From Acidobacteriota bacterium (GTDB lineage: Bacteria > Acidobacteriota > UBA890 > WLXD01): a stretch of 64,000 bases of DNA. Location of the stretch: contig DASCOT010000033.1 of assembly GCA_036012155.1 (NCBI GenBank), positions 106 through 64,105 on the forward strand, in the 5' to 3' direction. Both the position numbers and the translations under genes were made by a program. The notes beneath the pieces were generated by a model. It did not search any database, was not told the DNA's origin, and saw only the letters and a program-made list of their open reading frames with translations. Positions 4,485 to 6,941 of the stretch are shown piece by piece (the stretch's first letter is position 1; every line of letters begins with the position of its first letter).

Positions 4485-6941
4485 ATGGCCCAACCGCCCC
4501 GCAAGGATCTGCCTGAGAAAGACACCGGGTCGCTGCATGTCGTGTCAGCGACCGGCGCCCGCACGCGATTCCTGCGCGGCATGGTGACCCACGACCTCGT
4601 ACGGCGCGGCGTCGAGTTCGAGGAGGCTTACGCGACGGCGCGCGACGTGCGCGACGCGCTCGAGGGTCGTGAGGAAGTCGACAAGAGCGAGCTACGCGAG
4701 TTGATCGCCGGCGCACTTTCGAAGCGCTTGGGGACCGAGGTGATCTCCGAGCTGACAGAGCCGAACGAGGCCGTGCCGCTCCTGGAGGTCGTCACCAAGG
4801 GGCGCACCCACCCCTTCTCCAAAGGGCTGCTGGCCGAGACGATCTACGCTAGCGGTGTGCCGGCCGAGCACGCTTATCGCCTCGCTGCCGAGGTCGAGGT
4901 TCAGCTCCGCGAGGAGTCTGTTACCAGCCTACCGAGCACCGAGGTCGCCCGTCGGGTGGACGTGCTGCTCGAGCAGCACGCCGGCGTCAATGCCAAGCTT
5001 CGCTATCGAACGATCCGACGCATCAACCGGCTCCCCCGCCCGGTGATTGTGTACATCGGTGGCGCCAGCGGGACGGGCAAGTCGAGCCTGGCGCTGCAGC
5101 TTGCCCCGCTACTCCGCGTCTACCGCGTCTCTTCCACCGACACGATCCGGCAGGTCATGCGGATGGTATTCACCCCCGAGATCTTGCCGGCGTTGCACCA
5201 CTCGAGCTTCGAGATCACCCGCCAGGTAACCGCGGCTGCCGACCACCCGGTCGCCGAAAGCTCGGACACACTGCTGGAGAGCTACGAGGATCAGGCGCGG
5301 CGAGTGTGTGTGGGTACGCGGGCGGTCATCGAGCGAGCCATCGAGGAGAACGTCAGCATCATCGTGGAAGGCGTCCACCTGTTGCCAGGCATCGTGCCGT
5401 TCGCAGACCTCGCCGGCGAGGCGTACCAGGTCGCCATCATGCTCGGAACCCCCGACGAGGAGTCTCTCCGCGCCCGTATCCTCACCCGCCCCGCCGGAGG
5501 ATCACGACGCGCCGAGCGCTACCTCGAGGCGTTCGATGACATTCGTGCCATCAACGATCACCTGATGCAGATGGCCGAAGCACACGACATTCCGTTTCTC
5601 GACACATCCCGTGATGGTGAACCGGAGATTCACGCGGTGCAGCTGGTGACCGCTGAGCTCGAACGCCAGGTGCCGGCACTGGCGCACGCCGACTGGGTCG
5701 AATCATACAGCGACACCGCGACGCTGCTGCTGATCATCGACGGGGTTGCCGACCGCGCCGTGCGTGCGCTCGGCGGCCGCACGCCACTGCAGGCGGCCAA
5801 CACGCCGAACCTCGATCGGCTGGCCCGCGAGGGGACGCTCGGCCTGGCGGATCCGGTGGCGCCGGGTGTCGTGCCGGATACGGCAGCCGGCACGCTGGCG
5901 CTGTTCGGGCAATCACCCCGCGCGTTGAAGCGAGGCCCGGTCGAGGCGCTCGGCGCCGGCCTGGCAATGCTACCCGGCGACATCGCACTGCGTGCCAACC
6001 TCGCGACAATCGACAACGATGGCAACGTCATCGATCGACGCGCCGGTCGAATCCGCGACGACGCGGTGGCACTGGCTTCCGCCCTCGACGCGATTCAGCT
6101 ACCCGAGAGCATTGCTCGCGGCGCGCTCTTGCGCATCAAGGCGGCAACCGAGCACCGGCTGGCGATCGTCGCTCACGGACCCAACCTGTCGCCAGCGATC
6201 AGCGGCAGCGATCCCGGCGATGGCGCGCCGGTCGGGCCACCGCTGAGTGTCGAGCCTATCGATGACGCGAACGAGTCGGCGGCTCACACCGCAGGCATAC
6301 TCTCGGCGTTCGAGGCCGAGGCCCGTACCGTGCTGGAAGCTCACCCGATCAACGCCAGCCGACGCCGGCGAGGGGAGCCGGCGGCGAACGCGTTGTTGAG
6401 TCGCGGTGCCGGACGACTCCATCGGCTGGTGACTCTCGAGGAGGCCGGGGTGCCACTGCATGTATCGTGCATCAGCGGCGACCTCACGGTCATTGGCCTG
6501 GCGCGCTGGCTGGGCGCGGAAACCGTCTGCACGCCGGAGATGACCGCCAACCTCGACACCCACTTGCCAGCGAAGATGGCGGCCGCTATGGGCGCACTCG
6601 AGCAGGGCGACCTGACGATCCTGCACATCAAGGGGGCTGACATCGCCGCACACGACCGCCGGCCAGACCTCAAGGTGCAGTTCCTCGAAAGGCTCGATCG
6701 AGAACTCGGGGTTCTTCTCGACACCTACGCCGGCAAGGCATTGCGGGTAGGCGTGGCATCGGACCATGCGACGCTCTCGGAGAGCGGCCAGCACGCCGCC
6801 GATCCGCTGCCGGTACTGTTGTGGGGTCCAGGCTTCGAGGCCGACAACACAGAGCATTTCGACGAGTCGGCGGCGGCAGCTGGCGCCCTCGGTCGATTCC
6901 CGCTCCAGATACTACTCGGGTGGTTATTCGAGCTCGGCTAG
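4485..6941 (+). CDS. Fusion of 2-phosphoglycerate kinase (ATP-cone + P-loop) and ApgM-type cofactor-independent phosphoglycerate mutase
   Basis: N-half: PFSKGLLA, IGGASGTGKS, TDTIRQVMR, LHHSSF, IIVEGVH. C-half: IIDGVAD, TPLQAANTPNLDRLA, HIKGADIAAHD, SDHAT, GQHAADP. One uninterrupted ORF. Confidence 0.85.
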   Translation: MAQPPRKDLPEKDTGSLHVVSATGARTRFLRGMVTHDLVRRGVEFEEAYATARDVRDALEGREEVDKSELRELIAGALSKRLGTEVISELTEPNEAVPLLEVVTKGRTHPFSKGLLAETIYASGVPAEHAYRLAAEVEVQLREESVTSLPSTEVARRVDVLLEQHAGVNAKLRYRTIRRINRLPRPVIVYIGGASGTGKSSLALQLAPLLRVYRVSSTDTIRQVMRMVFTPEILPALHHSSFEITRQVTAAADHPVAESSDTLLESYEDQARRVCVGTRAVIERAIEENVSIIVEGVHLLPGIVPFADLAGEAYQVAIMLGTPDEESLRARILTRPAGGSRRAERYLEAFDDIRAINDHLMQMAEAHDIPFLDTSRDGEPEIHAVQLVTAELERQVPALAHADWVESYSDTATLLLIIDGVADRAVRALGGRTPLQAANTPNLDRLAREGTLGLADPVAPGVVPDTAAGTLALFGQSPRALKRGPVEALGAGLAMLPGDIALRANLATIDNDGNVIDRRAGRIRDDAVALASALDAIQLPESIARGALLRIKAATEHRLAIVAHGPNLSPAISGSDPGDGAPVGPPLSVEPIDDANESAAHTAGILSAFEAEARTVLEAHPINASRRRRGEPAANALLSRGAGRLHRLVTLEEAGVPLHVSCISGDLTVIGLARWLGAETVCTPEMTANLDTHLPAKMAAAMGALEQGDLTILHIKGADIAAHDRRPDLKVQFLERLDRELGVLLDTYAGKALRVGVASDHATLSESGQHAADPLPVLLWGPGFEADNTEHFDESAAAAGALGRFPLQILLGWLFELG

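Follow-up and report, generated by a model that had tools for sequence, protein, structure and literature searches.

What is the function of a bacterial protein that joins a kinase related to archaeal 2-phosphoglycerate kinase (2PGK) to a phosphoglycerate mutase of the ApgM type? Such a protein is encoded by gene P0001 of a marine acidobacterium, at positions 4485 to 6941 (+ strand) of the 64,000-nucleotide stretch of DNA analyzed here, which we refer to as the window. Both halves belong to enzyme families that are regarded as mainly archaeal, and the only characterized 2PGKs, to our knowledge, feed a heat-protective solute in methanogens. Our analysis reveals a conserved module of kinase and mutase, encoded either by one fused gene or by two separate ones, that is found in Acidobacteriota, Gammaproteobacteria, Myxococcota/"Deltaproteobacteria" and Planctomycetota. 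The mutase half appears to belong to a distinct clade with a threonine at the nucleophile position, and the gene neighborhoods of relatives suggest a connection to phosphate metabolism.

A single protein with two conserved halves

The preliminary description of the locus had proposed that one open reading frame of 818 amino acids encodes both enzymes, and had named separate genes in relatives together with a disrupted frame at the junction as the finding that would speak against this. P0001 is a genuine single protein joining both halves, as confirmed by the reading frame and its translation, by independent contigs and by full-length homologs. The start codon is ATG, and the N-terminus is kept as MA(Q/K)PP in four congeners. 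Three Logan contigs (33 kb, 9.6 kb and 845 bp), assembled from public runs of three different studies, span the junction region at 5300-6100 without an indel; on these grounds, we rejected an assembly artefact or chimera. Separate genes for the two halves do exist in distant relatives (L030, L051, L067, L034, L092-L094), and the frame at the junction is intact in the independent contigs. Hence, the split genes indicate a conserved module rather than an artefact.

A homology search with P0001 returned 496 proteins. The best 120 of these measure 787-858 amino acids, with the sole exception of one fragment of 696 amino acids; they align over 96-100% of the query, share 56-100% identity with it and originate mostly from metagenome bins of Acidobacteriota/Thermoanaerobaculia. 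In all, the single frame is retained in more than 120 homologs of ~820 amino acids. Publicly, the homologs are labelled either "2,3-bisphosphoglycerate-independent phosphoglycerate mutase" or "hypothetical". In an alignment of 22 sequences, mean column identity is 69%, and no variation is seen in the Walker A motif, in the motifs of the kinase, in any of the metal ligands or in the pair D465-T466.

The N-terminal half consists of two ATP-cones and a P-loop kinase domain. The kinase domain (residues ~185-400, 5037..5684, + strand) was recognized through the models NF003259 and NF008994 and through motifs in common with archaeal 2PGK; it carries the Walker A motif GGASGTGKS (residues 192-200, 5058-5084, + strand) followed by STDTIRQVMRM, EGVHL and RRAERYL. 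P0001 therefore shows the arrangement of the broad COG2074 family, an ATP-cone followed by a P-loop kinase with STDxIR, EGxH and RxxERY. Pfam adds weak P-loop matches (AAA_33 and AAA_18 on residues 189-355), Foldseek matches small P-loop kinases, and a further match is to the mevalonate-3-phosphate 5-kinase model NF008996. The first ATP-cone-like domain (residues ~17-92, 4533..4760, + strand) has the motif RFLRGM(V/I)THDL and forms a beta-hairpin plus helices in the AlphaFold model. The second (residues ~100-180, 4782..5024, + strand), with the motif PFS(K/R)GLLA, aligns with the single ATP-cone of archaeal 2PGK; its Pfam match is weak (PF03477 on residues 105-178, E=0.013), the AlphaFold secondary structure agrees with it, and a precomputed Pfam ATP-cone assignment is present for most P0001 homologs.

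For comparison, we used two archaeal reference 2PGKs (L145 and L146), which score 424 and 412 bits against the NF003259 cut-off of 343. They align from the second ATP-cone of P0001 through the C-terminus of its kinase half, with FSxGxL, STDxIRxxMR, LPxLHxSSF, EGxHxxP and RxxERY in common. In both references, the Walker A motif reads GxxGVGTS, i.e. threonine replaces the expected lysine, whereas the bacterial partner kinases all have GKS or GKT. The first ATP-cone is kept in fusions and split kinases and is absent from archaeal 2PGK as well as from the forms of Ca. Multivorans and Holophagales: fusions from the latter two groups (L022-L025, L119-L123) match only residues 100-816 of the query.

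The C-terminal half (residues 412-818, 5718..6938, + strand) is an ApgM-type, mutase-like metalloenzyme domain according to Pfam, NCBIfam, PDB sequence matches and Foldseek. Pfam assigns PhosphMutase (PF10143, E=1.4e-30) and Metalloenzyme (PF01676, E=1.1e-24) to residues 413-805, with the cap subdomain PF10143 at residues 447-623 (+ strand). The best PDB sequence match is ApgM 2ZKT (E=1.5e-68), and the E values of 2ZKT, 3KD8 and 3IDD range from 1e-68 to 4e-59. In Foldseek, the TM-score normalized to 2zkt_B is 0.89; the matches to phosphopentomutase, iPGM, alkaline phosphatase and NPP are at the superfamily level only. Other family matches are to PhpG (NF038358, 228 bits with a cut-off of 545) and to the proposed homoserine kinase TIGR02535. 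The domain has both the ApgM fold and its two-metal ligand set (Asp, Asp/His, Asp-His, His). The ligand positions D419, D719, H723, D760, H761 and H770, which had been described as intact in P0001, are invariant across the fused clades, and alignments with archaeal 2PGK and serine-type ApgM agree with intact catalytic residues in both halves. The AlphaFold2 model, computed from a 28-sequence alignment (mean predicted local distance difference test 84.7, predicted TM-score 0.69), contains two beta-hairpin-plus-helix ATP-cone units, the P-loop domain and the ApgM-like domain.

A threonine-type mutase clade accompanied by the kinase

In typical ApgM, the nucleophile is the serine of GSDxxH. P0001 carries Thr466 at this position (codon 5880..5882, + strand), which lies at the N-terminus of helix 466-473 in the AlphaFold model. 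The replacement, already noticed in the motif PDTA, holds up in the alignment with known structures: Thr466 of PDTAAG aligns without gaps to the serine of GSDTAH in 2ZKT and 3KD8, within the ungapped stretch PG..(14)..FG. It is no peculiarity of P0001, though, as the description of a single protein might have implied. The threonine is invariant in every fused clade, with varying flanking residues (PDTA, PSTA, PNTH, PGTD, PETD), and it is also found in P0149 (GTDTGHL/GTDTGH), which passes the NCBI ApgM equivalog cut-off. Threonine thus lies within ApgM as defined by NCBI, and serine is typical of the family, not strictly defining.

A FastTree phylogeny of 115 ApgM domains places the serine type (GSDTAHL) at the base and groups 59 rows in a threonine clade (GTDxGHL) with a local support of 96. 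Nested within it, a clade of 48 rows unites all fusions with the split partners L030, L034, L051 and L067; the following histidine is lost here as well, except in three rows (L034 and two close relatives). According to a column-by-column comparison, the threonine clade keeps essentially every residue that is at least 85% conserved in serine-type ApgM; all metal ligands are among these residues, as are DRRAGR, H557-R558, D576-P577, N623, R626, N635, R640, K697, H714 and K716. The consistent differences are confined to the nucleophile helix: S466T and the loss of H470 and Y476.

The distribution of the partner kinase follows this division. A kinase gene lies within 2.5 kb at 84 of 86 threonine-type loci, the other two both being cut by contig ends, and at none of the 72 serine-type loci; the loci were sampled by similarity and include duplicates, so that the counts should be taken as a strong tendency and not as a calibrated statistic. 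Judged by these sequences, threonine appears to mark a whole ApgM clade whose members are accompanied by a 2PGK-like kinase, fused or adjacent.

Distribution of the module

Searches beyond the closest homologs recover both forms of the module. Representatives of 50%-identity clusters include more full-length fusions at 36-41% identity, along with many stand-alone proteins of ~400 amino acids that match one half or the other. A scan of GTDB species genomes detects fusions in several groups of Acidobacteriota, among them Thermoanaerobaculia, Holophagales and Ca. Multivorans, and, at 34-43% identity, in Lysobacterales, Polyangiaceae, "Deltaproteobacteria" and Planctomycetota. Separate, adjacent or overlapping genes are present in Arenicellales (L030), a deltaproteobacterium (L051), Lysobacterales (L067) and Acidobacteriota (L034), in the order kinase then mutase. 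The stand-alone mutases P0152, P0140 and P0141 are each located directly 3' of a same-strand gene of 386-402 amino acids with an ATP-cone and/or AAA_18.

Among 301 sampled Acidobacteriota genomes, about 30 possess a full-length fusion, including nearly all members of the host's own order, and a few contain adjacent split pairs (G015, G136, G190, G012). Most of the fusion carriers also hold a separate ApgM of ~400 amino acids at 34-39% identity. The three fused clades of the mutase phylogeny also emerge from that of the kinase, which indicates that the two halves evolved together.

Phosphate genes in the neighborhood of the module

Clustering of neighboring open reading frames over 25 module loci yielded families that are common to several phyla. 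Pfam identifies them as a PstS-type binding protein, PhoU, PstC/PstA permeases, PstB, the polyphosphate kinases PPK1 and PPK2, a SixA-like histidine phosphatase, a CNNM/CBS protein and a PhoR-like kinase. We then defined a phosphate set (pstSCAB-phoU, phoBR, PPK1, PPK2, SixA-like, CYTH) and searched ~9 kb around the module with fixed tblastn thresholds. At 22 of 43 module loci, we found one or more phosphate genes; their arrangements are of at least six kinds and come from three or four phyla. In a matched control, taken from the surroundings of the second ApgM in the same Acidobacteriota genomes, the count was 0 of 20. Around stand-alone ApgM genes it was 0 of 40 (Fisher p=1.7e-8), though this set of mostly archaeal loci, with others from candidate phyla, is taxonomically mismatched, the former control being the better matched one.

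The arrangements range from complete operons to single genes. A whole pstS-phoU-pstC-pstA-pstB operon is located downstream on the same strand in L035 and L051, upstream on the same strand in L126, divergently in L031 and L045, and at a greater distance in L132 and L143. Genes for phoBR occur near the module in L016, L030, L132 and L143. Eight loci (L027, L127, L128, L130, L131, L140-L142) have a divergent PPK1 and a SixA-like gene directly upstream on the same strand; paired PPK2 genes are found in L010, L027, L067, L127 and L142, and CYTH in L030 and L125. These neighborhoods suggest a role in phosphate/polyphosphate homeostasis, and with it a previously undescribed connection of C3 metabolism to phosphate housekeeping.

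Some details of these loci are worth recording. The order of genes in the pst operons by the module is unusual (L035 10612-16157; L051 7836-13455; L126 3325-7902; L143 14135-18732), those of L035 and L051 have a second pstB-like ATPase gene, and the PhoU proteins carry a C-terminal extension of ~130 amino acids without a Pfam name. In the 9.3-Mb acidobacterial genome of L010, the fusion overlaps by 4 nt with a downstream gene of the AstE/AspA family (succinylglutamate desuccinylase-like), which is followed by an ATP-grasp/PGM1_C gene (coordinates noted at this locus: 12472-13677 and 14539-16077); two PPK2 genes lie divergently upstream.

Other mutases and cyclic diphosphoglycerate synthetase in the host genome

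The genome assembly of the host comprises 3.9 Mb and is 92.6% complete. It contains three strong PF01676 matches: the fusion, a phosphopentomutase (DeoB) with a KDT motif (contig C41, 1-1230), and a stand-alone serine-type ApgM with the motif PGSGPAH (contig C176, ~1935-3128), which passes the NF003160/PRK04135 cut-off (480 vs. 468). GpmI was not found in this genome, and His_Phos_1 matches are weak. The separate serine-type ApgM in the host and its relatives argues against a housekeeping role of the fusion, short of excluding it, and suggests that the mutase half is a dedicated paralog. With this second ApgM in the genome, we set aside the reading as a housekeeping mutase as improbable.

The preliminary description had reported that no synthetase for cyclic 2,3-diphosphoglycerate (cDPG) is encoded in the window. 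We extended this result by tblastn to the whole genome and to 26 genomes of the order. The query was the Methanothermus fervidus gene from a paper supplement, translated in pieces on account of frameshifts from optical character recognition; its identity is supported by a piece of 139 amino acids that matches PDB 8ORU/8ORK at 3e-78. No synthetase was found in the host genome, where the best match (E=0.025) lies in a wrong or non-coding frame, nor in 24 of the 26 genomes, the two remaining matches of ~19 bits being noise; the sensitivity of this search is that for recognizable homologs.

Upstream element, transcript and window context

A conserved non-coding block (4358..4414, + strand), identified by comparison with congeners, is situated 70-125 nt before the start codon. 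Four congeners hold a 13-bp inverted repeat in it, CGAACATACGCTC-ACC-GAGCGCATGTTCG; in the window, this repeat is degenerate. The block could be an operator or a leader hairpin and might take part in the regulation of the gene. It is palindromic, unlike the direct repeat of the Pho-box type, and an Rfam search of the upstream region gave no match beyond a chance miRNA. A contig of 246 nt from a hydrothermal-vent metatranscriptome is identical to positions 4475-4720 and starts 10 nt before the ATG. As a single contig from one run, it is too thin for an expression level and gives weak evidence of transcription, with DNA carry-over as a possible source.

Within the window, the fusion gene has an amino-acid permease on one side and an M23 peptidase on the other and is isolated on its strand, an arrangement also found in the congener L009; further neighbors encode a D-aminoacylase, proline dehydrogenase and EF-P. 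A functional tie to any of these five genes was considered and rejected: the synteny is retained in close relatives, and none is seen beyond the family.

Proposed function and alternative interpretations

The interpretation that we favor, and to which we assign an even chance, is that P0001 is a bifunctional enzyme of the conserved module, leading from 3-phosphoglycerate (3PG) through 2-phosphoglycerate (2PG) to 2,3-bisphosphoglycerate (2,3-BPG) under the control of ATP-cones and serving phosphate/polyphosphate homeostasis. The ApgM-type domain would bind phosphoglycerate at its two-metal site and move the phosphate by way of a phospho-Thr466 intermediate, from 3PG to 2PG and back. The kinase would phosphorylate 2PG with ATP to give 2,3-BPG, and the two ATP-cones would exert allosteric control on it. 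The module would neither feed cDPG synthesis nor act as a housekeeping mutase; rather, its task would be the synthesis or turnover of a bisphosphorylated C3 acid in response to the energy and phosphate status. The two catalytic activities, the product formed and the role in the cell are predictions from sequence and gene context. Because of the conserved residues, phosphoglycerate would be the most economical substrate for both halves, and the route from 3PG to 2,3-BPG put forward in the preliminary description remains the simplest chemical reading: the kinase keeps the motifs of archaeal 2PGK, and the mutase nearly all residues invariant in serine-type ApgM. The suggested purpose of that route, a solute or thermoprotectant, found no support, as the neighborhoods in relatives point to phosphate and polyphosphate instead. 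Together with the lack of a cDPG synthetase, they make phosphate/polyphosphate housekeeping a likelier role than solute synthesis.

Several observations weigh against this interpretation. Neither half reaches the curated cut-offs of its closest models: the kinase scores 272.6 bits (E=5e-81) against 603 for NF008994 and 245.7 bits (E=7e-73) against 343 for NF003259, and the mutase 346.1 bits against 489 for NF003104 and 307.1 bits against 320 for TIGR00306. The 2PGK family comprises enzymes with other substrates. We know of no enzymology of bacterial members, nor of a use for 2,3-BPG in bacteria that lack a clear cofactor-dependent mutase. As to the phosphate link, the module loci counted above are related to one another and are not phylogenetically independent. 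In the host itself, no phosphate genes lie within ~9 kb of the fusion in the window, and tblastn with queries from relatives found no PstS, PstC, PstA or PhoU in the 92.6%-complete genome. Furthermore, contig C24 of the host (9772-10631) contains, apart from the fusion, a SixA-like gene divergent from a PPK1 start at the contig end; the same pair flanks the fusion in the sister family, so part of the PPK1 signal may be due to hitch-hiking.

One alternative, which we consider possible but rather unlikely, is that the kinase primes the mutase. The threonine-type domain would then resemble phosphopentomutase, which reportedly requires a bisphosphate activator, as Panosian and co-workers are said to have described in 2011; its resting active form would be phosphorylated at Thr466 and need a bisphosphate donor. 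The kinase would supply 2,3-BPG as the activator. Overall, the protein would act as a phosphoglycerate mutase that ATP turns on via the ATP-cones, and no net 2,3-BPG would be made. The strict link between threonine and kinase suggests that the mutase may need the kinase product for the phosphorylation of Thr466: threonine at this position occurs only with the kinase, and the changes of the clade (S466T, H470, Y476) cluster on the nucleophile helix while the substrate-binding residues stay. The DT motif also resembles the KDT of the host's own DeoB, and the fold matches include phosphopentomutase structures such as the phosphorylated 4n7t. However, this similarity is confined to the superfamily level (TM-score ~0.45), a one-to-one fusion would be an odd supply route for a catalytic cofactor, a serine-type ApgM is already in the cell, and the phosphate-gene neighborhoods would be left unexplained. 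Comparably doubtful, in our judgment, is that the substrate of the module is neither 2PG nor 3PG but some other small phospho-hydroxy compound, such as an inositol phosphate, a phospho-hydroxy acid or the phosphate of a sugar acid, and that a different bisphosphate is formed. The scores below the equivalog cut-offs would fit, as would the breadth of both families: that of 2PGK takes in mevalonate-3-phosphate 5-kinase (the NF008996 match) and plant LPA1, proposed to be an inositol-monophosphate kinase (PMC4844318), that of ApgM the transferase PhpG (NF038358) and a proposed homoserine kinase (TIGR02535). In addition, the bacterial partner kinases keep the Walker A lysine, whereas archaeal 2PGK equivalogs read GVGTS. 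Yet the mutase half has kept nearly all invariants of serine-type ApgM, those of the Arg/Lys/His cluster in the cap domain among them, the kinase agrees in its motifs with bona fide 2PGK over the whole length, and the best hidden Markov model matches of both halves are phosphoglycerate enzymes.

A third possibility, which strikes us as very improbable, is that the half with the alkaline-phosphatase fold mainly hydrolyses or transfers the phosphate of the kinase product, so that one protein sets a bisphosphorylated signal of adenylate and phosphate status for the Pho and polyphosphate machinery. Threonine nucleophiles are typical of hydrolytic superfamily members, NPP is among the fold matches, and tandem ATP-cones suggest nucleotide sensing; a SixA-like histidine phosphatase is encoded directly upstream on the same strand in eight loci, and PhoU or PhoBR neighbor the module elsewhere. 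The substrate-binding residues typical of mutases are nevertheless retained, no receptor for such a signal is known, and without regulation, a synthase fused to a hydrolase would cycle futilely. Finally, public sources call the homologs plain 2,3-bisphosphoglycerate-independent phosphoglycerate mutases, and the gene might be of no particular interest: a chimera of the assembly, a gene in decay, or a housekeeping mutase with an extra domain. This is hardly credible in view of the independent contigs across the junction, the high degree to which the two halves are conserved (69% mean column identity, all catalytic residues), the separate ApgM in the same genomes and the metatranscriptome contig that matches the 5' end.

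Relation to known systems and significance

Archaeal 2PGK, known from Methanothermus fervidus and other methanogens (EC 2.7.2.16; NF003259/PRK04220; COG2074), has an ATP-cone and a P-loop kinase domain with all family motifs, as does P0001. P0001 differs by a second, N-terminal ATP-cone, the fusion to a mutase and the GKS of its Walker A motif, in contrast to GVGTS in the sampled archaeal equivalogs. Moreover, no cDPG synthetase partner was found in the host genome or its order, and in relatives the module often keeps company with phosphate and polyphosphate genes. In Methanothermobacter, cDPG is a major phosphorus-containing solute, whose accumulation keeps the total phosphorus of phosphate-limited cells comparable to that of optimized cultures (PMC4302986). 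With ApgM (PH0037, PDB 2ZKT; Thermoplasma 3KD8/3IDD; TIGR00306), P0001 has the fold, the metal ligands and the Arg/His residues of the cap domain in common. It departs from ApgM in the threonine as presumed nucleophile and in the loss of the His and Tyr at positions 470 and 476; the threonine type is coupled to a kinase and coexists with serine-type ApgM in the host genome.

Phosphopentomutase DeoB (Bacillus cereus, Streptococcus mutans; PDB 3M8W, 4N7T) belongs to the same Metalloenzyme superfamily and uses a threonine nucleophile in a D-T motif, but its cap domain and substrate differ, and the resemblance to P0001 amounts to a TM-score of ~0.45 and ~11% identity. PhpG of phosphinothricin biosynthesis (NF038358), an ApgM homolog that uses 3-phosphoglycerate in a transfer reaction, illustrates that this fold does more than isomerize; P0001 remains far below its cut-off (228 vs. 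545 bits), and no phosphonate genes are nearby. A parallel to the phosphate-gene company of the module is found in rice, where the dosage of the 2PGK-family kinase OsLpa1 controls the phosphorus store phytate and its overexpression raises seed phosphorus and phytate (PMC4844318). OsLpa1 is eukaryotic, though, and without a mutase partner; its proposed substrate is inositol monophosphate, the biochemistry being unproven. Full-text searches of the literature found no paper on the fusion, the threonine-type ApgM clade or the phosphate link. Omelchenko et al. listed COG2074 and COG3635 among the archaeal-type genes common to Thermus and Deinococcus and proposed no function (PMC1274311).

On a speculative and rather doubtful view, bacteria of several phyla might use the dedicated, ATP-cone-gated module to produce 2,3-BPG or a close analog, which would buffer phosphate within the cell or act as a signal, and in this way connect lower glycolysis with Pst, PhoU and polyphosphate, and the replacement of serine by threonine might be the switch to a bisphosphate-primed cycle like that of phosphopentomutase. 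Of immediate use to annotators is the rule that the threonine goes with the kinase, a simple test that separates these proteins from housekeeping ApgM. A conserved bacterial module stands behind hundreds of database sequences labelled as plain phosphoglycerate mutase. Should its chemistry be confirmed, bacterial phosphate homeostasis would gain a small-molecule branch, and a function would be at hand for the bacterial COG2074/COG3635 genes, which have been unexplained archaeal-type genes since 2005 (PMC1274311).

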